64,000 nucleotides of DNA from positions 9,920,001 to 9,984,000 of the forward strand of contig OZ024759.1 in assembly GCA_964016885.1 (NCBI GenBank), in the 5' to 3' direction. This document shows, piece by piece, positions 1,195-61,110 of this stretch; the first letter of the stretch is position 1; every line of letters starts with the position of its first letter. This DNA comes from Eledone cirrhosa. Lineage: Eukaryota. A program made the translations under genes and the position numbers. The notes beneath the pieces are model-generated. The model saw only the letters and a program-made list of their open reading frames with translations, was not told where the DNA came from and made no database searches.

Positions 1195-2055
1195 AAACTA
1201 AAATGGCCTGTATCTGGTCAGAATTATCTCACCTCATTCTGTTCAAACCAGCTGTAACTGGCCATTCATTCTGACTTTAAGGTATTCTCAAACTAAAATC
1301 TTTGTAATCTCATAGTTTCAATATTATGTGAGATATTATGTAAGGTAAAGTCTTTACTGTGACAATACAATAGTATATATAGAGTAATGTAAATGTTATG
1401 TGAGATATTATGTGAGGTAAAGCCTTTACTGTGACAATACAATAGTATATATAGAGTAATGTAAATGTTATGTGAGATATTATGTGAGGTAAAGCCTTTA
1501 CTGTGAAAATACAATAGTATATATAGAGTAATGTAAATGTTATGCGAGATATTATGTGAGGTAAAACCTTTACTGTGAAAATACAATAGTATATATAGAG
1601 TAATGTAAATGTTATGTGAGATATTATGTGAGGTAAAGCCTTTACTGTGACAATACAATAGTATATATAGAGTAATGTAAATGTTATGTGAGATATTATG
1701 TGAGGTAAAGCCTTTACTGTGACAATACAATAGTATATATAGTGTAATGGAAATGTTATGTCAGATATTATGTGAGGTAAAGACTTTACTGTGACAATAC
1801 AATAGTATATATAGTGTAATGGAAATGTTATGTGAGATATTATGTGAGGTAAAGCCTTTACTGTGACAATACAATAGTATATATAGAGTAATGTAATTGT
1901 TATGTGAGGTATTATGTGAGGTAAAGCCTTTACTGTAAAAATGCAATAGTATATATAGAGTAATGTAAATGTTATGTGAGGTATTATGTGAGGTAAAGCT
2001 TTTACTGTAAAAATACAATAGTATATATAGAGTAATGTGAATGGTAAAGGGTTAA
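1195..2055 (+). mobile_element. TTAA/piggyBac-like MITE with internal 72-bp satellite array
   Basis: Family body plus ~10 units; ends ...taaagggTTAA. Confidence 0.75.
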
Positions 2056-2071
2056 ATTAAATATATATTAC

Positions 2072-2168
2072 CAATTTGTTTCAGAGGTTGAACCACAGAA
2101 AATCGGAACAAAGAGATGGGATTCAGCAGATGTGATGTTTGTCTCCAGCTGGATGCCAACGACTTAGC
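2072..2168 (-). CDS. MFSD10: MFSD10 coding exon 6 ([32 protein letters not shown])
   Basis: ttgtag acceptor, 97 nt, GTAATA donor; matches the central-loop 'LL.P..LFRFS.V' segment. Confidence 0.88.
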
Positions 2169-5100
2169 CTACAACAACAACAACAACATTAATTTCTAAG
2201 AAAATTCAAATTTCTATATTACACCCAACCACCTCACCACCTAACCACCTCACCACCCAACCACCTCACCACCCAACCACCTCACCACCCAACCACCTCA
2301 CCACCCAACCACCTCACCACCCAACCAACCAACCACCTCACCACCCAACACCTCACCACCCAACCAACCAACCACCTCACCAACAAACCACCTCACCACC
2401 CCAATCAATTTATTTCTACAAATATATGATTGCAAGCTATTTTCTTCACCTTAAAACATGTTCATCTAAGTAAGATTTAATGAAAAAAAAAAAAAACCAT
2501 AACCCACATATTTTAGAATGCACACAGTACACTATGTAAAGTCGTTGATGATAGGAAAGGCATCCATTTAAGCATAGAAAAGTTTTCTTCTTCACCAACT
2601 TGCTTCTGAGAGGGTTGAGGATTTTTTAAATATTTTCTGCTTCTTTTTAGAAGGTACTTTTCCAGAGATTCAAGCCACCCAGCACACACAAGGTTAAATT
2701 TTCCATTTAACCCTTTAGCGTAGAGCATAAAGCACTCTTCTTTTCTTTACCTTTTCTACGGAAATACTTAACACTATATACATAGATAGATAGATAGATA
2801 GATACACACACACAACTTATATAAAAAGACAGGGGATAAAGAAAAGAGGGGACACTCAGGTCCAGACCTCAAGGGTCGTTTGTTGAAAATAATAAACAAT
2901 TTGAAAGGATTTAGTAATTTAACTAACATTTTCATTATTAACCCTTTAGCATTTAAACTGGCCATATCCTGCCAGAATTCTCTCACCTCTTTCTGTTCAA
3001 ACCAGCAGTAAGTGGCTGTTCAGACTGATGTTAAGGTATTGTTTTCAACATGAATAATATCAAAATCTCATAGATTCAATATTATGAGAGATATTATGTG
3101 AGGTAAAGCCTTTACCATGAAAATATAATAGTTTATATAGAGTAATGTAAATATTATTTGAAGTAAAGCCTTTACTGTGAAAATACAATAGTATATATAG
3201 AGTAATGTAAATGTTATATGAGATATTATGTGAGGTAAAGCTGTTACTGTGAAAATACAATAGTATATAGAGAGTAATGTGAATGCTAAAGGGTTAAACT
3301 ATAGAATTAGTTAAAATGGATTTTTTAGTTACAATAATTTTGGATAGCTGGCTGACATTTAAAATTTAAAATGTCAAATACAATATGTTACTAGTGTGTT
3401 AAGTTACATCTAAGTATGTTATATGCCCCCAGGTGTTGCAAGCAGTGTGTTCAGCCAGTACTTATCCTGGTTTCATGGTGTGAAGCGACTGTGAGTACAA
3501 GACGCCAATCCATCGCAGGGTTAAACCCCCAGCTATTGCTGGTACTCATTTTCAGTTGAGTATGCTGGAGTAACATGAAATGAAGTCTTTTGCTCAAGAA
3601 CACAACACGCACACCCAGGAATCGAACCCACGACATTATGATCGTAAGTCCAACACCCTGAGTAAAACACTTCATTTCATGTCACTCCAGCATACTCAGC
3701 TGAAAATGAGTACCAGTAATAGCTGGGGGTTTAACCCTGCGATGGACTGGCGTCCTGTCCATAACAACAGTGTTAGCAGCACAATGCACGGCTGTTGATT
3801 GTCACCCAGAAATATTCTGTTTACACATTTATATTTATATACTCATACATATAAATGTATGCATATACACATATACACATAAACACATATACACAAACAC
3901 ACATACACACAAACACACATATACACACACATACACATACACACATAAACACAAACACATATACACATATATACACAAACACACATATATACATACACAC
4001 ACATATACACAAACACATATATACATACACACACCCATATACACACAAACACATACATACACACACACACACATACACATATACCCAAACACATACACAA
4101 ACACACACATACACACACACATATACACATATACACAAACACATATATACATACACACATATACACAAACACATATACATACACACACATATACACAAAC
4201 ACATATATACATATACACACACACACACACACACATATATACACAAATGCATCAGTGTATGGAAAACCTTCTAGTCTATATCCATCAATGGAGGTATGTA
4301 GTTGGTAGAAACATGAATAAAATAATTACTCACCCTTTTACTGGGAGGCAGGGACTCGTTCAGGCAGAATATGATGAACAATATATCTGTTAGGATTAAA
4401 CCAAGAGCAAATAGAGCAGGGATTGCAAATAGACCCTGCTGTTTCCCAGCCATCTTTGAGAACATGGCACCAATAAAAGGACCAAAGATGAATCCAAGAG
4501 AAAAAGCAATCCCGATCAGAGCCTAAGGAGTAAAGAGAAGAGTGATGCTAGAGCTGTGAAAGGAGTAAAGAGAAGAGTGATGCTAGAGCTGTGAAAGGAG
4601 TAAAGAGAAGAGTGATGCTAGAGCTGTGAAAGGAGTAAAGAGAAGAGTGATGCTAGAGCTGTGAAAGGAGTAAAGAGAAGAGTTATGCTAGAGCTGTGAA
4701 AGGAGTAAAGAGAAGATTTTTATACATGAATCAAACATCAACAGGGTTCTTTGGGAATATGTTTGTTTATTATTATTATTTAGGGCGGTGGATTGGCAGT
4801 ATCGGTAGAGGCTCGGACGTCATGCTTTGACGCATAGAGTTACGGCCCTTGCCATTCTGAGTTCAAATCCCGCCGAGGTTAACTTTGCCTTTCATCCTGA
4901 CGGGGTCGATAAAATAAAGTACCAGTAATACACTGGGTAATTGCTGGCCTTGTGCCAAAAGTAGAAACAATTATTATTTACGTCCCTTTACGGACTGAGT
5001 TCAAAGAGTTACCTCCCTTTATGGTTTGAGTTCAAATCCCACCGAGGTTAACTTTGCCTTTCATCCTTTCAATGTCGATAAAATAAAGTACCAGTAATAC

Positions 5101-8100
5101 ACTGGGATAATTGCTGGCCTTGTGCCAAAAGTAGAAACAATTATTTGGCAGTATCGGTAGAGGGTCGAACGCCATGCTTTGTAGCATAGAGTTACGCCCC
5201 TTTACGGTCTGAGTTCAAATTCCGTTGAGGTTAACTTTGCCTTTCATCCTTACGGGGTCGATAAATTAAAGTACCAGTAATACACTGATATAATTGCTGG
5301 CCTTGTGCCAAAAGTAGAAACAATTATTATTATTCCCATTATTATATGAGCGTGGATTGGCAGTATCGGTAGAGGGTCGGACGCCATGCTTTCCAGCATA
5401 GTTACGTCCCTTTACGATCTGAGTTCAAATCCCGCCGAGGTTGACTTTGCCTTTCATCCTTATGGGGTCGATAAAATAAAGTACCAGTAATGCACTGGAT
5501 ATTTGCTGGCCTTGTGCCTAAAGTAGAAACAATTATTATTCCCATTATTATTTTTATTGCATATCATTACTGCTTTACTGAGCACAGCTGTGTGGGCCTT
5601 GGGTATGTGCAGTGTAGTTTTTATGGTGTTGTTTCTATTGTATTGATAGTACTTTTCATATGTGTGCAGTGCTTAGTAGTGTTATCTTTTGTATGCTGTA
5701 TATATTTGTAAGTCTGGGATTTTGGCTATGTATTTGTCTGTGTGCTTTTTATCATTCCCAGACCACCCATTATTATAGTATTATTATTATTATTATTATT
5801 ATATATGGCGGTGGATTGGCAGTATCGGCAGAGGGTCGGATGCCATGCTTTGACGCAAAGAGTTATGACTACCTCATACTACTCCTCTCCTTGTGTGTGT
5901 GTGTGTGTGTGATTGTTGTGTGTGTAGGTGATGGTGGTGGTGGTGGTGATGGTGGTGGTGGTGGTGGTAGTGGTGATGATGGTGGTGGTGGTGGTGGTGA
6001 TGGTGATGGTGGTGGTGGTGATGGTGGTGGTGGTGGCGGTAGTGATGGCGGTGGTGGTAGTGGTGGTGGTGATGGTGGTAGTGGTTGTGTGGTGGTGGTA
6101 GTGGTTGTGTGGTGGTGGTAGTGGTTGTGTGGTGGTGGTAGTGGTTGTGTGGTGGTGGTGGTAGTGGTGGGGGTGGTGATGGTGGTAGTGGTAGTGGTGA
6201 TGGTGTGGTGGTGGTAGTGGTGGGGGTGGTAGTGGTGATGGTGTGGTGGTGGTAGTGGTGGGGGTGGTTGTGGTGGGGGTGGTAGTGGTGGTGATGGTGG
6301 TAGTGATGGTGGTAGTGGTGGTGTGGTGGTGGTGGTGATGGTAGTGGTGGTGAAGCTGGGGGTGGTGGTGGTAGTGGTGGTGGTGGTAGTGGTGGTGGTA
6401 TTGGTGATGGTGGTAATGGTAGTGGTGGTGTTGGTGGTGGTGGTGGTGGTGTTGGTGGTGGTGGTGGTGGTGGTGGTGGTGGTGTTGGTGGTGGTGGTGG
6501 TGGTAGTAGTGCTGATGATGGTAGTGGTGGCTGTGGTAGTGATGATGATGATGGTGGTGGTGGTGGTGGTGATTTATGATACTAAGAGATACTAATGACA
6601 AATTGCTATTTAATCGCAGGTCATCTATCATTGATCAAAAGACAGTCCATCCCGTCTGCCATTTTATGAGACAGCTTATATGATATATCGAAGATCACAT
6701 TATTGAATATGTCCCACCTTTTATTTCAAGATAGTCGGATAGCTTGATTGATATTTCTAGCATCAAGAATGACCACATAGAGGACACTGTCATTAACTTA
6801 CAAGACAAGTTTTATATCTAGGTCAGAGACTGATATGTCCATACTAAGTAGATCAAATAAAAGTTTAAACTAATTAGTAGAGGCATATATTACCACTTAG
6901 TTTACGGTTTCTCATATACAAATATAACCTACATATTAAGTAGGTTTTTATTTACAAGCTCAATTCAACTTTTCATAAACATCAAATACTGTTTGATACA
7001 ACACAACTTCTACTTAACCCTTTAGCATTTAAACTGTCCATATCTGGTCAGAATTATCTCACCTCTTTCTGCTCAAACTGACCGTAACTGGCCACTCATT
7101 CTGATGTTAAGGTATTGTTCTCAAAATAGATAATTGTTTCTACGTTTGGCATAAGGCCAGCAATTACCCAGTGCATTACTGGTACTTTATTTTATCTACC
7201 CCGTCAGGATGAAAGGCAAAGTTAACCTTGGCGGGATTTGAACTCAGAATAGATAAATAGATAATATCAAAATCTCATAGATTTTGATATTATGTGAGGT
7301 AAAGCCTTTACTGTGACAATACAATAGTATATATAGAGTAATGTAAATGTTATGTGAGATATTATGAGAGGTAAAGCCTTTACTGTGAAAATACAATAGT
7401 ATATATAGAGTAATGTAAATGTTGTGAGGTATTATGTGAGGTAAAGCCTTTACTGTGACGATACAATAGTATATATAGAGTAATGTAAATGTTATGTGAG
7501 ATATTATGTGAGGTAAAGCCTTTACTGTGAAAATACAATAGTATATATAGAGTAATGTAAATGTTGTGTGAGGTATTATGTGAGGTAAAGCCTTTACTGT
7601 GACAATACAATAGTATATATAGAGTAATGTAAATGTTATGTGAGATATTATGTGAGGTAAAGCCTTTACTGTGACAATACAATAGTATATATAGAGTAAT
7701 GTAAATGTTATGTGAGATATTATGTAAGGTAAAGCCTTTACTGTGAAAATACAATAGTATATATAGAGTAATGTAAATGTTATGTGAGATATTATGTGAG
7801 GTAAAGCCTTTACTGTGAAAATACAATAGTATATATAGAGTAATGTAAATGTTATGTGAGATATTATGTAAGGTAAAGCCTTTACTGTGAAAATACAATA
7901 GTATATATAGAGTAATGTAAATGTTATGTGAAATATTATGTGAGGTAAAGTCTTTACTGTGAAAATACAATAGTATATATAGAGTAATGTAAATGTTATG
8001 TGAGATATTATGTGAGGTAAAGCCTTTACTGTGAAAATACAATAGTATATATAGAGTAATGTAAATGTTATGTGAGATATTATGTAAGGTAAAGCCTTTA

Positions 8101-11100
8101 CTGTGAAAATACAATAGTATATATAGAGTAATGTAAATGTTATGTGAAATATTATGTGAGGTAAAGTCTTTACTGTGACAATATAATAGTATATATAGAG
8201 TAATGTAAATGTTATGTGAGATATTATGTGAGGTAAAGCCTTTACTGTGAAAATACAATAGTATATATAGAGTAATGTAAATGTTGTGTGAGGTATTATG
8301 TGAGGTAAAGCCTTTACTGTGACAATACAATAGTATATATAGAGTAATGTAAATGTTATGTGAGATATTATGTGAGGTAAAGCCTTTACTGTGACAATAC
8401 AATAGTATATATAGAGTAATGTAAATGTTGTGAGATATTATGTGAGGTAAAGCCTTTACTGTGAAAATACAATAGTATATATAGAGTAATGTAAATGTTA
8501 TGCGAGATATTATGTGAGGTAAAGCCTTTACTGTGACAATACAATAGTATATATAGAGTAATGTAAATGTTATGTGAGATATTATGTAAGGTAAAGCCTT
8601 TACTGTGAAAATACAATAGTATATATAGAGTAATGTAAATGTTATGTGAAATATTATGTGAGGTAAAGCCTTTACTGTGAAAATACAATAGTATATATAG
8701 AGTAATGTAAATGTTATGTGAGATATTATGTGAGGTAAAGCCTTTACTGTGAAAATACAATAGTATATATAGAGTAATGTAAATGTTATGTGAGATATTA
8801 TGTAAGGTAAAGCCTTTACTGTGAAAATACAATAGTATATATAGAGTAATGTAAATGTTATGTGAAATATTATGTGAGGTAAAGTCTTTACTGTGACAAT
8901 ATAATAGTATATATAGAGTAATGTAAATGTTATGTGAGATATTATGTGAGGTAAAGCCTTTACTGTGAAAATACAATAGTATATATAGAGTAATGTAAAT
9001 GTTATGTGAGATATTATGTGAGGTAAAGCCTTTACTGTGACAATACAATAGTATATATAGAGTAATGTAAATGGTATGTGAGGTATTATGTGAGGTAAAG
9101 CCTTTACTGTGACAATACAATAGTATATATAGAGTAATGTAAATGTTATGTGAGATATTATGTGAGGTAAAGCCTTTACTGTGAAAATACAATAGTATAT
9201 ATAGAGTAATGTAAATGTTATGTGAGATATTATGTGAGGTAAAGTGTTTACTGTGACAATACAATAGTATATATAGAGTAATGTAAATGTTATGTGAGAT
9301 ATTATGTGAGGTAAAGCCTTTACTGTGACAATACAATAATATATATAGAGTAATGTAAATGGTATGTGAGGTATTATGTGAGGTAAAGCCTTTACTGTGA
9401 AAATACAATAGTATATATAGAGCCATGTGAATGCTAAAGGATTAAATATTTAAAACAAATACATACTTTAGAAACCTGTTTTAATCAATCTCTACTATGA
9501 TCAAATACCTCTTAATTCAATTCAAACTATAAATTCTTTAGCTATTATATTCACCATCATCATTTAATGTCCCCCGTCCCTGCTAGCAATGGTTGGACAG
9601 GTCTACATAGACCAACAGTACTGAAGTGGAGCTATTGACCTCCAAGACAGCCTTACATTCTATCAAGTGTACAGGAGAGGTTGTCATGTTTTGACTCAAC
9701 CAAAGGGTCTTCCTAACTCTTTGTTTGGAACACTTTCTATGGCTGGATGCCCTTCCTATCACAAACACTAGAGAGGTTGTCCTGTCCTTGACACAATTGA
9801 AGTGTGTTCAACCGCCTTTTATTGTATATATTGCCCTCAACTAAATACAAATGTCCATGTCACTAATACATTTTTACTGTAAACACTTTACCTCACATAA
9901 TTATTTCACATAATATTGAATCTATGAGATTTTGATATTATATATTTTGAGAACAATACCTTAACATCAGTATGAGTGGTCAGTTACAGCCAATTTGAAC
10001 AGAAAGACGTGAGAGAATTCTGGCCAGATATGACTGGTTTAACCCTTTCACATTTCCTTTACTCTATATATACTATTATATTTTCACAGTAAAGGCTTTA
10101 CCTCCCATAATATCTCACATAACATTTACATTACTCTATATATACTATTATATTTTCACAGTAAAGGCTTTACCTCACATAATATCTCACATTACATTTA
10201 CATTACTCTATATATACTATTATATTGTCACAGTAAAGGCTTTACCTCACATAATATCTCGCATAACATTTACATTACTCTATATATACTATTATATTTT
10301 CACAGTAAAGGCTTTACCTCACATAATATCTCACATAACATTTACATTACTCTATATATACTATTGTATTTTCACAGTAAAGTCTTTACCTCACATAATA
10401 TCTCACAACATTTACATTACTCTATATATACTATTGTATTTTCACAGTAAAGACTTTACCTCACATAACATTTACATTACTCTATATATACTATTGTATT
10501 TTCACAGTAAAGGCTTTACCTCACATAATATCTCACATAACATTTACATTACTCTATATATACTATTGTATTTTCACAGTAAAGGCTTTACCTCACATAA
10601 TATCTCACATAACATTTACATTAATCTATATATACTATTGTATTTTCACAGTAAAGACTTTATCACACATAATTATCTCTACTCTATATATACTATTGTA
10701 TTTTCTCAGTAAAGGCTTTATCTCAAATAATTATCTCACATAATATCAAATCTACGAGATTTTGATATTATTTATTTTGAGAACAATACCTTAACATAAG
10801 TATGAGCAGCCAGTTATAGTCAGTTTGAACAGAAAGAGGCGAGAGAATTCTGGCTGGATATGGCCAGTTTAAATGCTAAAGGGTTAAAGATGTGACATGT
10901 TTTTATTATAAATTCAACAAAATATCAACATTTCTCATCAGCTTTTCATCATCGTAGTCCTTATTTTTATGTCTACTTTTCCACAGTTGAAAGGGTTGGA
11001 CAGGTCCTTCTCAGCACAGCATCTCTCCCCTGGTTGTGTTCCTGGCATGGGTTGGACAGGTCCTTCTCAGTACAGCATCTCTCCCCTGATTGTGTTCCAG

Positions 11101-14100
11101 GCATGGGTTGGACAGGTCCTTCTCAGTACAGCATCTCTCCCCTGGTTGTGTTCCTGGCATGGGTTGGACAGGTCCTTCTCAGCACAGCATCTCTCCCCTG
11201 ATTGTGTTCCTGGCATGGGTTGGACAGGTCCTTCTCAGCACACCATCTCTCCCCTGATTGTGTTCCAGGCATGGGTTGGACAGGTCCTTCTCAGCACACC
11301 ATCTCTCCACTGATTGTGTTCCTGGCATGGGTTGGACAGGTCCTTCTCAGCATACCATCTCTCCACTGATTGTGTTCCTGGCATGGGTTGAACATGTCCT
11401 TCTCAGCACACCATCTCTCTCCTGGTTGTGTTCCTGGCATGGGCTGGACAGGTCCTTCTCAGCACAGCATCTCTCCCCTGATTGTGTTCCTTGAAAGGGT
11501 TGGGTGAGTCCTTCTCAGTAATCCTTTGTCATCTCCTCTCTGAGCTTCAGTGATTTGAAGATCAGCTCACACCACCTCCATCTTGGTCTTCCTTGGTCTT
11601 CCTCTACTGCAGCTTCCTTCCACTGGCATTTCCTGGTGGTGGCGGCAATGACGGTGACAATACCAGTAATGATAGTGATGAGGATGGTGGTGATGGTGAT
11701 GATGGTGATGGTGGTGGTAATGGTGATGATGGTGGTGATGATGGTGGTGATGGTGGTGGTGATGATGGTGGTGATGATGGTGGTGATGATGGTTGTGGTG
11801 GTGATGGTGATATTGCTGAAGATGAAGGTGGTGGTAATGGTGACGATGGTGGTGATGATGATTATGATGATGGTTGTGGTGGTGATGGTGATATTGATGA
11901 TGATGATGGTGGTGGTGGTGATGGTGGTGGTGATAGTGATGATGGTTGTGGTGGTGATGGTGATATTGATGATGATGATGGTGATGATGGTGGTGATGAT
12001 GGTTGTGATGGTGATGGTGATATTGCTGATGATGATGGTGGTGGTGGTGGTGGTGATGGTGATGCCTATGATGGGGATGATAATGGTGATGATGATGATG
12101 GTGAGAATAACAGACTGAGAAGACTGCAGCCAACATGTCAATACAACGACCTAGCCCCATATTGAATTACGTAGGTATTCTTACCATTCCTCGGCCCCTT
12201 TTCTCAGCAGAAGAGACATCTGTGACTATGGCAGTAGACAGACTGATGTTACCTTTACTGACGCCACCAATAATTCTTGCGATGATGAACAACAAGAAGT
12301 TACTGGAGAGTGACCATATCAGGTGAGATATAGCTACACCTACCTGGACAAGGTGAGAGAAATAAAAAGAAAAAAAACATAGGTTAATTAAATCAGACCC
12401 TACACCTACCTGGAGAAGGTGAGATAAATTATAACATAGGTTAATTAAAACAGATCCTAATATAGTTACACCTACCTGTAGAAGGTGAGATAAATTATAA
12501 CATAGGTTAATTAAACTAAACCCTAACCCTACACCTACCTGGAGAAGGTGAGATAAATTATAACATAGGTTAATTAAAACAGATCCTAATATAGCTACAC
12601 CTACCTGGAGAAGGTGAGATAAATTATAACATAGGTTAATTAAACCAAACCCTAACCCTACACCTACCTGGAGAAGGTGAGATAAATTATAACATAGGTT
12701 AATTAAACCAAACCCTACCCTACACCTACCTGGAGAAGGTGAGATAAATTATAACATAGGTTAATTAAACCAAACCCTAACCCTACACCTACCTGGAGAA
12801 GGTGAGATAAATTATAACATAGGTTAATTAAACCAGATCCTAATATAGTTACACCTACCTGGAGAAGGTGAGATAAATTATAACAAAGGTTAATTAAACC
12901 AAACCCTAACCCTACACCTACCTGGAGAAGGTGAGATAAATTATAACATAGGTTAATTAAACCAGATCCTAATATAGTTACACCTACCTGGAGAAGGTGA
13001 GATAAATTATAACAAAGGTTAATTAAACCAAACCCTAACCCTACACCTACCTGGAGAAGGTGAGATAAATTATAACATAGGTTTGTTAAACTAGACCCCA
13101 ATATTACTTCATTAACAGACACTCATTATTCGTCAACACTTTCATTTGTTACTGTTTCCAGTCATTAGACTGTGGCCATGCTGATGTAATGCTGGTGTAA
13201 TGGTGGTGCCAGCATGGCAAATTTAATACATAGGTTATTTAGCTCCAGGAGCATGTCAATATATAGTTTAAATCTTTCTCTCTCCTAAAATAGCAGAGTT
13301 CTAAAGACAGCCATGTTGAGGGGGGTCTTTATTTACATGGCAGTAGGTGTCCCCAGCAACGACAGACTATTTTGCTAGTATATACATATACATATACATA
13401 TATATATATACACACAAACACACAGATGTAGATATAATATATATGTGCACACACATTAATTAGCAGAACAATGAAACATATCGTGAGGGTGGTAGAACAA
13501 TGAAACATATAGTGAGGATGGTAGAGGTGATTCATGAATGAATGGCTATACAACGTGTTTTCATGATAAAATGTGAATGTGAAATATGAAAGATGTAGTG
13601 CCAACATGCATATAACACCATGCACGTGTTTGTGCGCGTGTAGAGAAACATCGGCTTAGATACATGCATCAACATAAACATGCAAGTATCTCGTACCATT
13701 TGCTGAGAGATTCCAATACAAGTATTCATGAGAAATAGCTGTCTTTTGACTTATCCTTCACCCTTAGGTGAGACAGCCAGCACAACTTCACACCAGCAGT
13801 CTCTGTTTCCCCATCAAGGTTTGTAGGTCTTCCTTGCCAATTCAGGTGTCTGCTGCTATGGTATCCTGGTATGTAAGCTTTCTGATAGAAGAGATCATCC
13901 AAAACAAGAGGTCTGAAACCATCTCATACTTTACACGGAAGCAGTGACCAGCAAACCTTGTACAACATTCAACCAGTCGTGCACTTACTTTTGGGAATTT
14001 CCGTATATCTGATTAAGCGTGTGATGGGTCTGCCAAGGAATATTTTAAGCCTTTCTAAGAAGGGTAGTGTAACATTCATCTAAACGGCTCAGTAGACGGG

Positions 14101-17100
14101 AGTGTAAGGTCTGTTGACTCAGAAGGGTAGAGTACCCTCCATCTAAATAGAAGGGATGGGAATAATACCACACTAACTCTTAACATCCTGTACCACATGA
14201 GACCACATTAGCAAGACATTCTTGACAAATAAAAAAAGCATTTTTACTGCATCACATTAAATATTAAAGTCATTACTCTAATACAACAAAATTTCCACAA
14301 CAATCTGTCCACTGGTAAAGATACTATAAACATTTGAATTAACAAACCCCCCATTTTTAGATATTTTCTTCTAAACCACTACAGGATGTTTAACTTCTTC
14401 AATGCCGTAGATGAGATAACTCGCCCTAACATGTTTGAACTCTTTTCCAACAGTTCATAACTTCAAAGTTATGAACTTGTTTCTAATAGTTCATAACTTC
14501 AAAGCTAGATGGAGTTACTAGTTTATTGATGTGATATTTGTCAATCATTCAGATATGTTTTGTTAATAAATGTCTGTTTAAAAAAATAGTCATTTTGCTG
14601 GGAAAAAAAAACCTGGCACAGCAACTGTGGCTATGTAAAATATACATGGCAGTCAACAGGTTAAGATTTAATGTACCAAACCATTGAGTATTTCATTGTT
14701 GTGAGGGTGGTAGGTGGAGCGGAGTGGAGGGACACACATTGCGGAATTAAAGAAAAATAATTTACCATAGAAATAAGAAGCAAAGGTTTCCGTCCATAGA
14801 CATCAGATGCGACTCCAATAATTGGGGAGGATATGAACTGTAACAATGAAAACATGGAGCCAATCATACCTGACAACAGAGAGAAAGTTTTAAACTGATA
14901 ACATGGATACAGTTGATTTCATATAACACATTTTAAAGTAACTCATTGGTCATGTCATCAAAGACAAGGGTTTTTATGGGTGGTATGGGGTGACATGGGG
15001 TGGAGTGGGGTGGTAAAGGGTGGCCTGAGGTGGGGGTGGGTGACATGAGGTGGCATGGGTTGTATGGGGTGGCCTGAGGTGGGGTGGGATGGTATGGGGT
15101 GGCCTGGAGTGGCCTGAGGTGGTACGGGAGGGGTTTCTTTTGACGGAGGGAGTGACCATTGTGTTCCCGTCCACCTCAAACAAGCAATGTAAGAAACTGT
15201 CACCGAGACTTGGATGTTGGAACATACTGACCCTGACTACTGGTCAGTCTGATGATCTTTCAAAGATCAGTGACACCTGTAAAACAACAGTTACCAACAA
15301 CGAACTGCTATGACTTTGAGTGGACATTGCAGCACTTCTGGAGACATACCTCCCAGAATTGAGGACCCTTCGGACATTACAGCACTCCTGGAGACACACC
15401 TCCCAGAATTGAGGACCCTTTGGATATTACAGCACTTCTGGAGATACACCTCCCAGAATTGAGGACCCTTCAGACATTACAGCACTCCTGGAGACACACC
15501 TCCCAGAATTGAGGACTTTCAGTGGACATTACAGCACTTATGGTGACATACCCCCCAGAATTGAGGACCCTTCGGACATTACAGCACTCCTGGGGACACA
15601 CCTCCCAGAATTGAGGACCATTCATGAGAAAGAATATACCTTTTTCTGGCAGGGAAAAGACATAGATGAAGCTAAAGAACATTGTGTCTGCTTTGTTGCG
15701 AAGAACTCACTGTTGAATATGGCAGATCTCGGCAATGATGGTTCGGAGCAGATCTTCTCACTCTAATTGCACACTTTGAATGGGCCCGTCAACCTTGTCA
15801 GTGCTTATACCTCAACCTTCTATTCCACACCAGACAAGGATACATTTTATGATTAGCTCTCCAGAAAAATACAGGCATGTAATATATATACTGGAGAGAA
15901 ATGAAGCAAGTATGCTCCGTTAGATGTGCAATGTCAATGTGCGTGAATGACCCAGCATAGACGAGTTGAGAAAGAAACTGGGTATAAGAGGGATAAGTTG
16001 CGGTGTGCAGGAGAGAAGGCTGAGATGGTATGGACATGTGATGAGTTGAGAGAGAAACTGGGTATAAGAGGGATAAGTTGTGGTGTGCAGGAGAGAAGGC
16101 TGAGATGGTATGGACATGTGATGTGTTGACAGAGAAACTGGGTATAAGAGGGATAAGTTGTGTTGTGCAGGAGAGAAGACTGAGATGGTATGGACATGTG
16201 ATGTGTTGAGAGAGAAACTGGGTATAAGAGGGATAAGTTGTGGTGTGCAGGAGAGAAGGCTGAGATGGCATGGACATGTGATGTGTTGAGAGAGAAACTG
16301 GGTATAAGAGGGATAAGTTGTGGTGTGCAGGAGAGAAGACTGAGATGGTATGGACATGTGATGTGTTGAGAGAGAAACTGGGTATAAGAGGGATAAGTTG
16401 TGGTGTGCAGGAGAGAAGACTGAGATGGTATTGACATGTGATGTGTTGAGAGAGAAACTGAGTATAAGAGGGATAAGTTGTGGTGTGCAGAAGAGAAGGC
16501 TGAGATGGTTTCGACATGTGATGTGTTGAGAGAGAAACTGGGTATAAGAGGGATAAGTTGTGGTGTGCAGGAGAGAAGGCTGAGATGGTATAGACATGTG
16601 ATGTGTTGAGAGAGAAACTGGGTATAAGAGGGATAAGTTGTGGTGTGCAGGGGAGAAGACTGAGATGGTATGGACATGTGATGTGTTGAGAGAGAAACTG
16701 GGTATAAGAGGGATAAGTTGTGGTGTGCAGAAGAGAAGGCTGAGATGGTATGGACATGTGATGTGTTGAGAGAGAAACTGGGTATAAGAGGGATAAGTTG
16801 TGGTGTGCAGGAGAGAAGACTGAGATGGTATGGACATGTGATGTGTTGAGAGAGAAACTGAGTATAAGAGGGATAAGTTGTGGTGTGCAGGAGAGAAGAC
16901 TGAGATGGTATGGACATGTGATGTGTTGAGAGAGAAACTGGGTATAAGAGGGATAAGTTGTGGTGTGCAGGGGAGAAGACTGAGATGGTATGGACATGTG
17001 ATGTGTTGAGAGAGAAACTGGGTATAAGAGGGATAAGTTGTGGTGTGCAGAAGAGAAGGCTGAGATGGTATGGACATGTGATGTGTTGAGAGAGAAACTG

Positions 17101-22088: not shown

Positions 22089-25000
22089 TAACATATATAC
22101 TACTATATACATATATATACTAATATATATATATATATATACTAATATATATAATAATATATATATATACTGATATATACTAACCTCCAAATAGAACTAT
22201 ATTCCATCTGGCTGTGTTTGGCATTCCGACCAAATTCTGAAAGTATTGCACTGCTTCCACCAGACTTCTGTAGAGAGTGCTCTGAAATGGAGAGTAATGT
22301 AAATATTATGTGAGGTAAAGCCTTTACTGTGACAATACAATAGTATATATAGAGTAATGTAAATGTTATGTGAGGTAAAGCCTTTACTGTGACAATACAA
22401 TAGTATATATAGAGTAATGTAAATGTTATGTGAGGTAAAGCCTTTACTGTGACAATACAATAGTATATATAGAGTAATGTAAATGTTATGTGAGATATTA
22501 TGTGAGGTAAAGCCTTTACTGTGAAAATACAATAGTATATATAGAGTAATGTAAATGTTATGTGAGATATTATGTGAGGTAAAGCCTTTACTGTGACAAT
22601 ACAATAGTATATATAGAGTAATGTAAATGTTATGTGAGATATTATGTGAGGTAAAGCCTTTACTGTGACAATACAATAGTATATATAGAGTAATGTAAAT
22701 GTTATGTGAGATATTATGTGAGATAAAGCCTTTACTGTGACAATACAATAGTATATATAGAGTAATGTAAATGTTATGTGAGATATTATGTGAGATAAAG
22801 CCTTTACTGTGAAAATACAATAGTATATATAGAGTAATGTGTAGTGACCTACATTCCGCGGGTTCTTATACATTCTCCGTGTGTTATTTGGCTCAGCCCA
22901 GCCAATGACCACCAGCGGAGGAGAACGTATCTCTACGCGCCCTGAGGGAAAATTTCCGCGCCAATTCGAGAAATCTCTCTCTTGCTGCTTGGACCATTGG
23001 AAGGTAAACACCTGCTTTTCTTTTGCCGTGAAATCACTGGCCAATATGTAACAACAATATAACCACGGCCTGGCAACACTTCAGCCAGTAGACCATACCT
23101 TTCTGAAAGTCTTAATGCGTTTGTTTTATTTCTCTTGGCATGTCAACTACTATTCAGCTCAACCTTTGTTAATAAATAACATAAAACAAAATAAACATAC
23201 ATTTCATCTCTTATTTCTGCTGTTGACATCATTATTATGCTTCACGGTGGATTGGCAGTATCGGTAGAGGGTCGGACGCCATGCTTTGAAGCATAGAGTT
23301 ACCTCCCTTTATGATCTGAGTTCAAATCCCGCCGAGGTCAACTTTGCCTTTCATCCTTACAAGGTCGATAAAATAAAGTACCAGTAATACACTGGGATAA
23401 TTGCTGGCCTTATGCCAAAAGTAGAAACAATTATTATGCTTCACATGGTGCTACTAACTATAACATATATTAAATGCTAAAAATGTAAATGGAAAAGGGC
23501 TAAGAAGCTAGGAATTACAATGAGGATGAGATTGTTGTAGAAAATGGCCTTGCTAGGAACAAGGATTCTAAGGTAGGTGTTAGAAAGTTGAAGGAGAAGG
23601 AAAGACTCAAAGGACCTTGGCCATTGACCATGGATCTCTCTTTTGCTATAGTGTTTGTATAACATCTGATATTGTTATTATAAATGATAATAATAATTGT
23701 TTCTACTTTTGGCACAAGGCCAGCAATTACCCAGTGTATTACTGGTACTTTATTTTATCGACCCCCCGTAAGGATGAAAGGTAAAGTTAACTTCGGCGGG
23801 ATTTAAACTCAGATCGTAAAGGGACGTAACTATGGCGGAAAGCATGTCCGACCCTCTACTGACACTGCCAATTCACCCAGGCTGGACAGACTAAGGAAAC
23901 TGTTGCAATTGTTGCTGCTAAGCACATAAAATTAATGGCAAAAGCAAAAGGTCAAGAGCAATTAGCATCAAAATGGGAGCAGAAACCTCTGCATGGCAAA
24001 TATGTGGCCCGTATCAAACAAGCTGATGTTGACCAAAAGCACACCCATCAGTGGCTACGTAGCTTAGGGCTAAAAGCAGAGAGCAAAGGATTCATCTTAG
24101 CTGCCCAAGATCAAATCTTACTGACATGGAATTACCAGGCCAATGTGACCAGAAATGGAGTAAATCCAAAGTGTCGATTCTGCAATGTTGAGGTTGAAAC
24201 AGTGGACCACTTAATCTTTGGATATAAAGTTTTAGCCCCAGTAGAGTTGACCAATATCTACACTGACAGAGTTGGCCAATATCTACACTGGGTAATATGT
24301 CAGCATTATAAAATCAAAGCTGCTGACAAGTATTACAATCATCACCCTGAGGCTGTAACTGAAGGAGGAAAAGTAACAATTCTTTGGGACTTTCCTGTAC
24401 ATACTGACTGGACCATAAAAGCTAATAGACCAGGTATCATTGTAAAAAACCAACATAACAAAGTCTGTTTATTGATTGATATGAGCATCCCATGTGATCA
24501 CAATATTGTGGCAAAAGAATTCAACAAGCTAAGAAAATATAAAGATCTGCTTATTGAAATCGAAAAAATGTGGCACCTCAAGGCCGTTACAATACCAGTG
24601 ATTGTGGGAGCACTGGGAATGATCAAGAAAGGAACAGAACAGTATTTGAGGATGACTCCTGGTTTACCCTCTCTGAAAGAGGTGCAAAAAATTGTTTTGA
24701 CTGGTACTGCACACATATTGAGAAGAGCACTATCTCTGTAAGAATGATATTCTTCTGTAAGAATGATTAGCTGTAGATTATATTCAATGTGGTGTATTAA
24801 CTGGCTTACCAATGTATACAGTGAGTTTATTGCCCTAGGTGTCAGGAAGACACTCGGCATATAATAGAAACAATACTGAAGGAAAAGGATAAAACAATAA
24901 TAATAATGATAAAGTGCAGAAGATGAAATGTGAGAGATTCTTACTTGATCATGTTGCTGATAATAATCTAGAATGGAAGGTAACAATGGTAGAATCAATG

Positions 25001-33008: not shown

Positions 33009-33994
33009 TAGGGTGGCCCAACAGTTGCGATACATAAAAGAAATAATTGTATTTTATACCCCTTTAATGTTCAAACCGGCCAGAATTCTCTACCTTTTTC
33101 TGTTTAAACTGGCTGTAACTGGCCACTCATACTGATGTTAAGGTATTGTTCTCAAAATAAATACTTTCAAAATCTCATAGATTCAATATTATGTGAGATA
33201 TTATGTGAGGCAAAGCCTTTACTGTGAAAATACAATAGTAAATATAGAGTAATGTAAATGTTATGTGAGATATTATGTGAGGTAAAGCCTTTACTGTGAA
33301 AATACAATAGTATATATAGAGTAATGTAAATGTTATGTGAGATATTATGTCAGGTAAAGCCTTTACTGTGAAAATATAATAGTATATATAGAGTAATGTA
33401 AATATTATGTGAGATATTATGTGAGGTAAAGCCTTTACTGTGAAAATACAATAGTATATATAGAGTAATGTAAATGTTATGTGAGATATTATGTGAGGTA
33501 AAGCCTTTACTGTGAAAATACAATAGTATATATAGAGTAATGTAAATGGTATGTGAGATAATTATGTGAGTTAAAGCCTTTACCATGAAAATATAATAGT
33601 ATATATAGAGTAATGTGAATGTTATGTGAGATATTATGTGAGGTAAAGCCTTTACTGTGACAATACAATAGTATATATAGAGTAATGTGAATGTTATGTG
33701 AGATATGTTGAGGTAAAGCCTTTACCATGAAAATATAATAGTATATATAGAGTAAAGTAAATGTTATGTGAGATATTATGTGAGGTAAAGCATTTACCAT
33801 GAAAATATAATAGTATATATAGAGTAAAGTAAATGTTATGTGAGATATTATGTGAGGTAAAGCATTTACCATGAAAATATAATAGTATATATAGAGTAAT
33901 GTAAATGTTAAAGGGTTAAGAAACAATTTATTCAAAATAAATAAATATGGAAACTTAAAAATTTCCTACGTATTGCGACTTTTGGGCCACCCTG
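33009..33994. mobile_element. Tc1/mariner-like MITE with nested TTAA MITE/72-bp array (33059-33919)
   Basis: TIRs tagggtggcccaacagttgcgatac / gtattgcgacttttgggccaccctg in TA context. Confidence 0.75.
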
Positions 33995-40415: not shown

Positions 40416-42404
40416 TTATTCATAAAAAAGAACATTTATGTTCCTTTTTTTGAAATTTATATATTTCCTTTCAAGGAATGTATTTATACTCTCAGCTGCC
40501 TGCAATGGTATCTTTGGAATATTGTTAATCAATATTTTAGTAATCGACTGATATCAAAATCAGTAGTATATTGAAAAATGGAAAAATAGGGTAGGGGCGT
40601 TTCATGATTTTAATGGGACAAAAGGGGGCGTTTGTCCTAAATGTGTTGAGAACCTGTGCTCTATATTTACTATTGTATTTTCATGGTAAAGGCTTTATCT
40701 CGCATAACATTTACATTACTCTATATATACTATTGTATTTTCATGGTAAAGGCTTTACCTCACATAATATCTCACATAACATTTACATTACTCTATATAT
40801 ACTATTGTATTGTCACAGTAAAGCCTTTACCTCACATAATATCTCACATAACATTTACATTACTCTATATATACTATTGTATTGTCACAGTAAAGGCTTT
40901 ACCTCACATAATATCTCATAACATTTACATTACTCTATATATACTATTGTATTTTCATGGTAAAGGCTTTACTTCACATAATATCTCATAACATTTACAT
41001 TACTCTATATATACTATTGAATTTTCATGGTAAAGGCTTTACCTCACATAATATCTCACATAACATTTACATTACTCTATATATACTATTGTATTGTCAC
41101 AGTAAAGGCTTTACCTCACATAATATCTCATAACATTTACATTACTCTATATATACTATTGTATTGTCACAGTAAAGGCTTTACCTCACATAACATTTAC
41201 ATTACTCTATATATACTATTGTATTTTCACAGTAAAGGCTTTACCTCACATAATATCTCACATAACATTTACATTACTCTATATATACTATTGTATTGTC
41301 ACAGTAAAGGCTTTACCTCACATAATATCTCATAACATTTACATTACTCTATATATACTATTGTATTGTCACAGTAAAGGCTTTACCTTACATAATATCT
41401 CACATAACATTTACATTACTCTATATATACTATTGTATTGTCACAGTAAAGGCTTTACCTCACATAATATCTCATAACATTTACATTACTCTATATATAC
41501 TATTGTATTGTCACAGTAAAGGCTTTACCTTACATAATATCTCGCATAACATTTACATTACTCTATATATACTATTGAATTTTCATGGTAAAGGCTTTAC
41601 CTCACATAATATCTCACATAACATTTACATTACTCTATATATACTATTGTATTGTCACAGTAAAGACTTTACCTCACATAATATCTCATAACATTTACAT
41701 TACTCTATATATACTATTGTATTGTCACAGTAAAGGCTTTACCTCACATAATATCTCGCATAACATTTACATTACTCTATATATACTATTGAATTTTCAT
41801 GGTAAAGGCTTTACCTCACATAATATCGAATCTATGAGATTTTGATATTATTTATGTTGAGAAGGGCGGTGGATTGGCAGTCTCAGTAAAGCGTCAGAAA
41901 CCAGGATTCGCAGCATAGAGTTATGGCCCTTTACGTTCTGAGTTTAAATCCCGCCGAAGTTAACTTTGCCTTTCATCCTTATGGGGATCGATAAAATAAA
42001 GTACCAGTGATACACTGAGGTAATTGCTGGCCTTGCGCCAAAAGTAGAAACATTTATATTGAGAACAATACCTAAACAGCAGTAGGAGCGGTTGGTTACG
42101 GCCGGTTTGAACAGAAATAGGTGAGAGAATTCTGGCCGGTTATGGCTGGTTTAAATGCTAAAGGGTTAAAGAAGTCTTTTATTGATGAATGTTTATACTT
42201 TGAGCTGCACACTGTGGAATGCAATATATTTACTCAGAGACACCATCGACACACACCATTACCAGGCAGATTAAACAAAACACACAGAGACACACTATTG
42301 GTGAGTCACCAAGCAAGAGTTTCAATAATGCTTGGTGACATAAGAAACAACCTGAAAATGTATTCTTTAATTTTATTACTTGATAAAAATTTCTAACTTG
42401 ACTC

Positions 42405-57809: not shown

Positions 57810-60800
57810 TTGTTTCTTCTCTGCAGACCTTCTCCTGTCCAGCTCTCCTAAGAGTGTCTTCTCTGCAGACCTTCTCCTGTCCAGCTCTCCTAAGAGTGTC
57901 TTCTCTGAAGACCTTCTGCTGTCCAGCTGTCCTGAGAGTGTCTTCTCTGCAGAACTTCTGCTGTCCAGCCCTCCTGAGAGTGTCTTCTCTGCCGACCTTC
58001 TGTTGTCCAGCTCTCCTGAGAGTTTCTTCTCTGCAGACCTTCTGTTGTCCAGCTCTCCTGAGAGTTTCTTCTCTGCAGACCTTCTGTTGTCCAGCTCTCC
58101 TGAGAGTTTCTTCTCTGCAGACCTTCTGTTGTCCAGCTCTCCTGAGAGTGTCTTCTCTGCCGACCTTCTGTTGTCCAGCTCTCCTGAGAGTTTCTTCTCT
58201 GCAGACCTTCTGTTGTCCAGTTCTCCTGAGAGTTTCTTCTCTGCAGACCTTCTGTTGTCCAGTTCTCCTGAGAGTTTCTTCTCTGAAGACCTTCTGTTGT
58301 CCAGCTCTCCTGAGAGTGTCTTCTCTGCAGACCTTCTGCTGTCCAGCTCTCCTGAGAGTGTCTTCTCTGCAGACCTTCTGTTGTCCAGCTCTCCTGAGAG
58401 TTTCTTCTCTGAAGACCTTCTGTTGTTCAGCTCTCCTGAGAGTTTCTTCTCTGAAGACCTTCTGTTGTCCAGCTCTCCTGAGAGTGTCTTCTCTGCAGAC
58501 CTTCTGTTGTCCAGCTCTCCTGAGAGTTTCTTCTCTGCAGACCAGCTCTCCTGAGAGTTTCTTCTCTGCTGTCCAGCTCTCCTGAGAGTTTCTTCTCTGA
58601 AGACCTTCTGTTGTCCAGCTCTCCTGAGAGTTTCTTCTCTACAGACCAGCTCTCCTGAGAGTTTCTTCTCTGCTGTCCAGCTCTCCTGAGAGTTTCTTCT
58701 CTGCAGACCTTCTGTTGTCCAGCTCTCTTGTGAGTTTCTTCTCTGAAGACCTTCTGTTGTCCAGCTCTCCTGAGAGTTTCTTCTCTACAGACCTTCTGCT
58801 GTCCAGCTCTCCTGAGAGTGTCTTCTCTGCAGATATTCTGCTGTCCAGCTCTCCTGAGAGTTTCTTCTCTGAAGACCTTCTGTTGTCCAGCTCTCCTGAG
58901 AGTGTCTTCTCTGCAGACCTTCTGTTGTCCAGCTCTCCTGAGAGTTTCTTCTCTGAAGACCTTCTGTTGTTCAGCTCTCCTGAGAGTTTCTTCTCTGAAG
59001 ACCTTCTGTTGTCCAGCTCTCCTGAGAGTGTCTTCTCTGCAGACCTTCTGTTGTCCAGCTCTCCTGAGAGTTTCTTCTCTGCAGACCAGCTCTCCTGAGA
59101 GTTTCTTCTCTGCTGTCCAGCTCTCCTGAGAGTTTCTTCTCTGAAGACCTTCTGTTGTCCAGCTCTCCTGAGAGTTTCTTCTCTGAAGACCTTCTGTTGT
59201 CCAGCTCTCCTGAGAGTGTCTTCTCTGCAGACCTTCTGTTGTCCAGCTCTCCTGAGAGTTTCTTCTCTACAGACCAGCTCTCCTGAGAGTTTCTTCTCTG
59301 CTGTCCAGCTCTCCTGAGAGTTTCTTCTCTGCAGACCTTCTGTTGTCCAGCTCTCTTGTGAGTTTCTTCTCTGAAGACCTTCTGTTGTCCAGCTCTCCTG
59401 AGAGTTTCTTCTCTACAGACCTTCTGCTGTCCAGCTCTCCTGAGAGTGTCTTCTCTGCAGATATTCTGCTGTCCAGCTCTCCTGAGAGTTTCTTCTCTGA
59501 AGACCTTCTGTTGTCCAGCTCTCCTGAGAGTGTCTTCTCTGCAGACCTTCTGTTGTCCAGCTCTCCTGAGAGTTTCTTCTCTGCAGACCAGCTCTCCTGA
59601 GAGTTTCTTCTCTGCTGTCCAGCTCTCCTGAGAGTTTCTTCTCTGCAGACCTTCTGTTGTCCAGCTCTCCTGAGAGTTTCTTCTCTACAGACCTTCTGCT
59701 GTCCAGCTCTCCTGAGAGTTTCTTCTCTACAGACCTTCTGCTGTCCAGCTCTCCTGAGAGTTTCTTCTCTGAAGACCTTCTGCTGTCCAGCTCTCCTGAG
59801 AGTGTCTTTTCTGCAGACATTCTGCTGTCCAGCTCTCCTGAGAGTTTCTTCTCTGAAGACCTTCTGTTGTCCAGCTCTCCTGAGAGTGTCTTCTCTGCAG
59901 ACCTTCTGTTGTCCAGCTCTCCTGAGAGTTTCTTCTCTGAAGACCTTCTGTTGTTCAGCTCTCCTGAGAGTTTCTTCTCTGAAGACCTTCTGTTGTCCAG
60001 CTCTCCTGAGAGTGTCTTCTCTGCAGACCTTCTGTTGTCCAGCTCTCCTGAGAGTTTCTTCTCTGCAGACCAGCTCTCCTGAGAGTTTCTTCTCTGCTGT
60101 CCAGCTCTCCTGAGAGTTTCTTCTCTGAAGACCTTCTGTTGTCCAGCTCTCCTGAGAGTTTCTTCTCTGAAGACCTTCTGTTGTCCAGCTCTCCTGAGAG
60201 TGTCTTCTCTGCAGACCTTCTGTTGTCCAGCTCTCCTGAGAGTTTCTTCTCTACAGACCAGCTCTCCTGAGAGTTTCTTCTCTGCTGTCCAGCTCTCCTG
60301 AGAGTTTCTTCTCTGCAGACCTTCTGTTGTCCAGCTCTCTTGTGAGTTTCTTCTCTGAAGACCTTCTGTTGTCCAGCTCTCCTGAGAGTTTCTTCTCTAC
60401 AGACCTTCTGCTGTCCAGCTCTCCTGAGAGTGTCTTCTCTGCAGATATTCTGCTGTCCAGCTCTCCTGAGAGTTTCTTCTCTGAAGACCTTCTGTTGTCC
60501 AGCTCTCCTGAGAGTGTCTTCTCTGCAGACCTTCTGTTGTCCAGCTCTCCTGAGAGTTTCTTCTCTGCAGACCAGCTCTCCTGAGAGTTTCTTCTCTGCT
60601 GTCCAGCTCTCCTGAGAGTTTCTTCTCTGCAGACCTTCTGTTGTCCAGCTCTCCTGAGAGTTTCTTCTCTACAGACCTTCTGCTGTCCAGCTCTCCTGAG
60701 AGTTTCTTCTCTACAGACCTTCTGCTGTCCAGCTCTCCTGAGAGTTTCTTCTCTGAAGACCTTCTGCTGTCCAGCTCTCCTGAGAGTGTCTTTTCTGCAG

Positions 60801-61110
60801 ACATTCTGCTGTCCAGCTCTCCTGAGAGTTTCTTCTCTGCAGACCTTCTGTTGTCCAGCTCTCCTGAGAGTTTCTTCTCTGAAGACCTTCTGCTGTCCAG
60901 CTCTCCTGAGAGTTTCTTCTCTGCAGACCTTCTGTTGTCCAGCTCTCTTGTGAGTTTCTTCTCTGAAGACCTTCTGCTGTCCAGCTCTCCTGAGAGTTTC
61001 TTCTCTGCAGACCTTCTGTTGTCCAGCTCTCTTGTGAGTTTCTTCTCTGAAGACCTTCTGCTGTCCAGCTCTCCTGAGAGTGTCTTTTCTGCAGACATTC
61101 TGCTGTCCAA
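57810..61110. repeat. 39-bp minisatellite (~85 units) with higher-order 984-bp duplication
   Basis: gtccagctctcctgagagtttcttctctgcagaccttct unit; blocks at 59343/60327 and 59657/60641 repeat. Confidence 0.95.

Follow-up and report, generated by a model that had tools for sequence, protein, structure and literature searches.

The closest described relatives of the locus studied here are the mirage minisatellites of lancelets, found in Adh3, troponin C, the globins BflGb6 and BflGb9, and PGBD5, which are reported not to disturb splicing (PMC3087553, PMC3902484). Human genes carry VNTRs on the donor side, in F7 intron 7 (37 bp), 6-16, CBS intron 13, LMNB2 and PDGF; according to PMC1557585, the true site alone is used in F7, LMNB2 and PDGF, and two pseudo-sites serve in addition in 6-16 and CBS. 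In CBS 844ins68, 68 bp across an acceptor junction are present twice; splicing goes to the downstream copy and yields a normal mRNA (PMC2630376). In potato RdRp, an intron was gained when a boundary with a cryptic donor was duplicated, as envisaged by the Rogers model (PMC4974935). Finally, the published recursive-splice (RS) sites are described as conserved and found preferentially in long introns, and it is splicing intermediates that define them (PMC6110456; bioRxiv 10.1101/2020.11.05.367888).

Here, we report on an array at the acceptor of exon 4 of the MFSD10 gene of Eledone cirrhosa. We regard it, with a probability of about 0.72, as a locus-specific minisatellite that contains eleven extra copies of the intron 3/exon 4 boundary, which likely arose through slippage or unequal crossing-over; since splicing would for the most part select the true acceptor next to the exon, the array is likely neutral. 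On this reading, it extends the mirage minisatellites to cephalopods. Searches of the open literature gave no report of a cephalopod mirage minisatellite, nor of any minisatellite cleared by recursive splicing, although subscription papers and supplements may contain one, and the available portion of PMC13196383 does not tie recursive splicing to splice-site minisatellites. Where octopod genomes are rich in repeats, decoy acceptors of this kind can cause errors in gene annotation and in the mapping of junctions, and they offer a test case for how the spliceosome settles on a single 3' site when a dozen copies are equally good.

The MFSD10 exon 4 boundary and its tandem copies

In tblastn searches, six MFSD10 coding exons were located in the window (the whole 64-kb stretch of DNA that was analysed), and the remainder of the gene lies in neighbouring DNA. 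Coding exons at ~25139-24945, 22284-22183, 14869-14766 and 12343-12185 bear out the numbering of exon 4 in an earlier note on this DNA. Exon 4, which follows the last AG, shares 87-92% identity with MFSD10 from Octopus and Argonauta. Exon 3 also begins with GT (AG/GTATGA; the slash marks the splice junction), yet it lacks an array. The features of the locus, together with the arrays found at other exons, are collected in Table 1.

Table 1. Coordinates of the MFSD10 exon 4 array, its flanking exons and further splice-site arrays of the same genome
Feature	Position	Strand	Basis and remarks
MFSD10 exon 3, motif A (DVYGRK)	14766..14869	-	donor ATG/GTAAAT at 14765
MFSD10 coding exon 4, 159 nt, 53 aa	12185..12343	-	starts GTAGGTGTA (Val-Gly-Val); donor ATG/GTAAGA; homology, tblastn
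Proximal unit, true acceptor	12344..12409	-	66 nt; diverged from other units, longer U-rich tract
Four further units (66, 63, 66, 63 nt)	12410..12667	-	motif positions
62-nt unit, 1 base short of 63-nt type	12668..12729	-	motif positions, copy alignment
Five distal units (63, 66, 63, 66, 63 nt), near-identical, 129-nt higher-order repeat	12730..13050	-	TRF, alignment
Distal partial copy ending in first decoy AG, diverged array boundary	13051..13104	-	TRF, alignment
MFSD10 exon 5 acceptor array, 35 nt x 5.5	4525..4716	-	abuts acceptor 4523; TRF
HECT-exon acceptor AG/GT array, 38/41-nt units	C1:702-708 kb (in C1:701000-710000, 1281-6913)	+	at least 131 sites; Pfam-supported exon
GATase_2 (glutamate-synthase-like) acceptor AG/GT array, 86 nt x 13	C20:7832000-7838500, 1784-3110	+	Pfam-supported exon
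fn3 donor-side array, 15 sites, 52-64 nt	C9:14678000-14687000	-	Pfam-supported exon
DUF7402 donor-side array, 39 nt, 11 sites	C17:43921500-43930500, 4190-4660	+	Pfam-supported exon

On the minus strand, the motif AGGTAGGT recurs with the G of its AG at 12344 (the true site), at the decoys 12410, 12476, 12539, 12605 and 12668, and at six distal sites (12730, 12793, 12859, 12922, 12988 and 13051). A motif search reproduced exactly the spacings that the earlier note had given (66, 66, 63, 66, 63, 62, 63, 66, 63, 66 and 63 nt from the exon outward), and the junction reads YAG/GTAGGT at all twelve sites, in line with the AG/GTAGGT that had been claimed. The description of a 12-fold acceptor is right as to the twelve sites, which are properly counted as 11 decoys plus the real site. 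The motif occurs at two other sites only in the window (46290, minus strand; 23571, plus strand); as a repeat, the twelve-site recurrence is far beyond chance. TRF resolves the array either into 11 copies of ~63 nt or, at 95% matches, into 5.5 copies of a higher-order unit of 129 nt (63+66).

The intron-like part of each unit, ~47-53 bases long, comprises a branch-like TTAAC, the pyrimidine tract and CAG; the start of exon 4 contributes a further 9-16 bases. Two types alternate, the 66-nt type carrying up to 16 exon bases and the 63-nt type 10. The spacer of the 63-nt unit also holds a telomere-like word, TTAGGG (e.g., at 12645-12657). Structural hallmarks of a mirage minisatellite are present: the unit spans an intron/exon boundary of its host, with the exon confirmed by homology, and an alignment of the 12 copies reveals homogenised, near-identical inner units next to a diverged true site and a diverged distal end. 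Furthermore, the array was born at its locus rather than derived from a dispersed satellite family; in a DNA search of its own 3.0-Gb genome, which scores the best candidates only, it matches nowhere else (6/6 matches, one candidate). A 10-nt word at +14 to +23 of exon 4 recurs, in frame, in the unit tail and may have seeded a first boundary duplication; expansion of the array by slippage or unequal exchange, together with homogenisation, would then have followed.

The array was also sought in three runs, all consisting of unspliced genomic contigs from one sample and compared over positions 12120-12560 (exon 4 and the three nearest units). The run contigs continue unspliced from exon 4 into the first array units, and the depth of the repeat-core contigs relative to that of the exon contig is 158 vs 10 and 203 vs 10.8 in two runs, i.e., 16-19x, with a mean of ~8.6 copies per array word in the assembly. 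Contig depth, which is not a copy number and here stems from contigs that are not independent of the assembly, fits the assembled array size or somewhat more in this one sample. Taken together, the unspliced contigs and the depth ratio speak for an array that is real and roughly as long as assembled. An origin of the whole array, or of most copies, in misassembly is highly improbable in our estimation, given these data, the substitutions that individual units carry and the higher-order pattern of 129 nt; in favour of an artefact, the three runs come from one sample, possibly the assembled one, no contig spans the whole array, and the compared interval ends before the 62-nt unit. Two of the three runs have another letter at position 12269, a third codon position of exon 4 at which Ile is kept, likely a heterozygous site.

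Splice-site strength, re-splicing and the reading frame

Splice sites were scored with a 20-nt acceptor matrix derived from 122, and a donor matrix derived from 115, inferred sites of this genome; both are rough since the training sites were inferred automatically. The real acceptor scores 10.9, ten decoys score 11.7 and one scores 10.8, corresponding to the 48th percentile of this genome's inferred sites for the real acceptor and to the 47th-59th for the decoys. A superior strength of the real acceptor in the 20-nt matrix was consequently rejected, and this absence of a preference counts against a neutral array; only the wider pyrimidine count differs (32/37 at -40..-4 at the true site vs 25-27 in the decoys). 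Exon definition would favour the last AG because this site alone opens an exon of normal length (159 nt) and is preceded by the richer pyrimidine tract; from the decoys, the exon would measure 225-866 nt. Where a decoy is used on rare occasions, the transcript might be repaired by re-splicing from the re-formed donor, or else would be degraded or be translated into a faulty protein whose membrane helix contains 21-22 additional residues. Leakage to the decoys, a further point against neutrality, is plausible by analogy, because human 6-16 and CBS intron 13 use their nearest pseudo-sites (PMC1557585).

The donor that is re-formed behind exon 3 by splicing to any of the decoys scores 8.5 (51st percentile), in comparison with 8.6 for the natural exon 3 donor. 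In the pre-mRNA, the decoy donor ranks in the 70th percentile, and one such donor lies 62-66 nt downstream of each decoy. The matrix scores agree with the ratchet-point-like geometry proposed in the earlier note: a strong acceptor abuts a donor, and the donor is re-formed after splicing. Re-splicing from the decoys is possible, as judged from the sequence, because the re-formed donor scores at the genome's donor median.

One might go further and propose that recursive splicing routinely clears the array, in that exon 3 joins a distal AG and then steps or jumps to exon 4, leaving a normal mRNA. Since the copied exon head is a near-consensus donor, each decoy AG/GTAGGT would serve as a ratchet point and each unit as an RS exon plus mini-intron; the distal AGs are transcribed first, and in published RS sites a 3' site adjoins a 5' site, with an RS exon downstream (PMC6110456). 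The decoys accordingly show both a re-formable donor at a strong 3' site and, in geometry, a downstream RS-exon donor. Against this proposal, intron 3 measures 2422 nt, in comparison with the minimum of 5 kb used in the pipeline of PMC6110456, and the AG/GT junction is not conserved. The first residue of exon 4 is Val in O. bimaculoides and Argonauta, Thr in Octopus vulgaris and O. sinensis, and Phe in two cuttlefish-type proteins; with Thr or Phe in four of the six other cephalopod proteins aligned, exon 4 cannot start with GT in these animals, provided that the intron position is shared, as we assume. Among the cluster members of five homologues, no protein is labelled as belonging to another octopod species. 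Arrays with a poor donor, or with none, also persist in this genome (see below). Hence, we consider routine clearance by recursion unlikely, and a self-clearing splice-site minisatellite, removed by stepwise recursive splicing, would be a doubtful designation for this array. Were it true, octopod genes would carry natural ladders of 11 to >130 ratchet points, the copy number of such ladders would alter splicing time and leakage, and the turnover of minisatellites would be linked to recursive splicing.

The AG/GT fusion was taken in the earlier note as a sign of function, a reading for which we find no support. GT begins 25 of 122 inferred exons, and GTR 11 of them; about one acceptor in five therefore starts its exon with GT, and the fusion is not conserved at exon 4 in O. 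vulgaris, O. sinensis and cuttlefish, under the assumption stated above.

The reading frame has likewise been invoked. In-silico joins from the donor at 14765 showed that the five proximal decoys (12410-12668, at the ends of the proximal unit and the four further units) indeed keep an open frame with exon 4 and add 21-22 aa each. The 62-nt unit alone breaks the frame, again as noted earlier, and because of this shift the six sites from 12730 outward run into stops. Ten of the 11 units are multiples of three and free of stops in the exon frame; the other two frames contain 2-4 stops per unit. The translated inserts are hydrophobic (mean 1.1-1.4). These properties would suit a regulated acceptor ladder in which proximal decoys add 21-22 hydrophobic residues, distal ones lead to NMD and the copy number tunes transporter output. 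However, the array descends from only two or three founding unit lengths, and when units were shuffled (3000 trials each), 35%, 38% and 59% of the shuffles had no stop in the exon frame. One of the three acceptor AG/GT arrays found among the matches listed keeps the frame, as chance predicts; the two others, as well as the exon 5 array of MFSD10, break it and add stops. Frame preservation is thus probably not meaningful here.

The insert would not lie at the start of the hydrophobic segment that follows motif A, as had been thought, but inside it: in the joint peptide of exons 3 and 4, the junction follows residue 34 and a 19-residue hydropathy peak is centred on residue 37. An insert within a membrane helix of the MFS fold would likely be harmful. 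None of the ten aligned homologues possesses an insert at this junction. The translated units matched no protein among 3132 candidates in a collection that probably lacks this species, which is weak evidence, and the decoy-extended exon gave 13 matches that each cover at most 65% of it in a collection from which the species is likewise probably absent. Weak Pfam hits of the translated array to membrane proteins, below the cut-off, were put down to composition. In view of these findings, a regulated ladder is, in our judgement, quite improbable. The earlier observation was correctly described; the functional reading attached to it is unproven, and its two supporting features correspond to chance expectation.

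Arrays at other exons and in the window

Within MFSD10, the array at exon 5 contains five decoy sites (pyrimidine tract plus CAG) at 4554-4694 that lack a GT; they score 11.3 vs 9.6 for the true exon 5 site, and use of any of the five would bring in a frameshift or stops. Its unit is partly found in other introns (L016, L129) and may derive from a dispersed repeat. Just upstream of the exon 7 acceptor, on the minus strand (L010, ~1620-1700), there is a two-copy duplication of ~38 nt. With exons 4, 5 and 7, three MFSD10 acceptors thus have adjacent duplications. Tandem repeats make up 44% of the window, and 23 minisatellite blocks account for 29% of it; as a consequence, exon boundaries get caught in minisatellites. 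It also contains, at 57812-61109 on the plus strand, a 42-nt x 83 array whose unit resembles a pyrimidine tract plus CAG, with no exon identified beside it, and six blocks of a 72-nt satellite family in both orientations (1320-2043, 7286-9433, 10050-10743, 22426-22840, 33185-33910 and 40696-41827) that is also present in neighbouring introns.

Motif searches of the genome, which selected for AG/GT, led to the four arrays of other genes in Table 1; the functionality of these genes (HECT, GATase_2, fn3 and DUF7402) is assumed from their intact exons. The HECT array, with at least 131 decoy acceptors over 5.5 kb, is far larger than the MFSD10 exon 4 array. The GATase_2 units copy the acceptor along with 26 exon bases, and their decoys are near-identical to the true site. 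At both arrays, the nearest decoys carry stops or shift the frame (5/5 and 4/4 tested, respectively). The intron between two fn3 exons mostly consists of 15 copies of the donor region, each with a pyrimidine tract and CAG/GTGAG.

These arrays do not amount to a genome-wide enrichment. Paired acceptor-GT motifs and their reversed controls gave 96 vs 47, 582 vs 631, 458 vs 377 and 152 vs 160 matches; the controls are similar and a few long arrays drive the counts, so that an enrichment of acceptor-like arrays was rejected. The matches listed comprised 96 of 96 (13 places), 100 of 582 (one array), and 100 of 458 plus 100 of 152 (30 places). At 39 of the 42 other motif places examined (12 + 30), no Pfam-supported exon abuts the array, in a scan that took in 74/144 and 47/81 of the flanking frames and that short or unmodelled exons would escape. 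In an unbiased sample of myosin and kinase exons (130 of 210 matches), a minisatellite lies within 45 nt of 16 of the 260 match ends. Inspection of 12 of these 16 ends revealed one small degenerate donor duplication and one borderline case, and the remaining four minisatellites begin 24-38 nt beyond the match end; a long array at an exon end was found at none of the 260 ends (with 12 of the 16 minisatellite-adjacent ends inspected). Very long open frames at some myosin loci were checked at three loci, where they proved not to be genuine.

Long arrays at splice sites are hence rare per exon, yet recurrent in this genome. Their rarity at exon ends (0/260) counts against the neutral reading of the MFSD10 array, and the sister arrays at other exons of the same genome support it, as do, by analogy, the published mirages and VNTRs, in which splicing is normal or nearly so. 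Collectively, these loci provide a graded series of natural controls: MFSD10 exon 4 with a strong donor in frame, the HECT and glutamate-synthase-like exons with weaker donors out of frame, and MFSD10 exon 5 as the case with no donor.

Comparison with known systems

Each of the systems introduced at the outset shares some features with the MFSD10 array. In common with the lancelet mirages, the 3' end of an intron and the 5' start of an exon are repeated in tandem; as in BflGb6, the inner units are homogenised to the exclusion of the boundary units, and the BflGb6 decoys also read AG/GT (supplement 4; PMC3087553, PMC3902484). The host, however, is a mollusc here and a chordate there. In addition, the MFSD10 array consists of 11 units of 62-66 nt, in contrast to 3-6 units of 150-160 nt in BflGb6, the donor that follows its AG is near consensus (GTAGGT vs GTTACT), and its units keep the frame.

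Similar to the human VNTRs, the end unit of the array constitutes the real splice site and identical pseudo-sites lie beside it (PMC1557585). There, the donor is repeated, whereas it is the acceptor at MFSD10; the choice among its copies would mirror, on the acceptor side, what the F7 experiments addressed for donors. On the donor side, the counterparts in this genome are the fn3 and DUF7402 arrays. An acceptor junction is duplicated in CBS 844ins68 too, in a unit of about equal size (PMC2630376), but there are eleven extra copies at MFSD10 and one in CBS.

As in AGGT-based intron gain (PMC4974935), the donor-like GT of the exon turns each unit into a GT...AG segment with a branch-like site and a pyrimidine tract; in contrast to the potato intron, AG and GT abut at MFSD10 and no exon lies between the copies. 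With recursive sites, the array shares the juxtaposed AG/GT and a second donor shortly downstream (PMC6110456; bioRxiv 10.1101/2020.11.05.367888). Those sites are conserved, occur singly and reside in long introns, whereas MFSD10 has tandem, probably young copies in a 2.4-kb intron.
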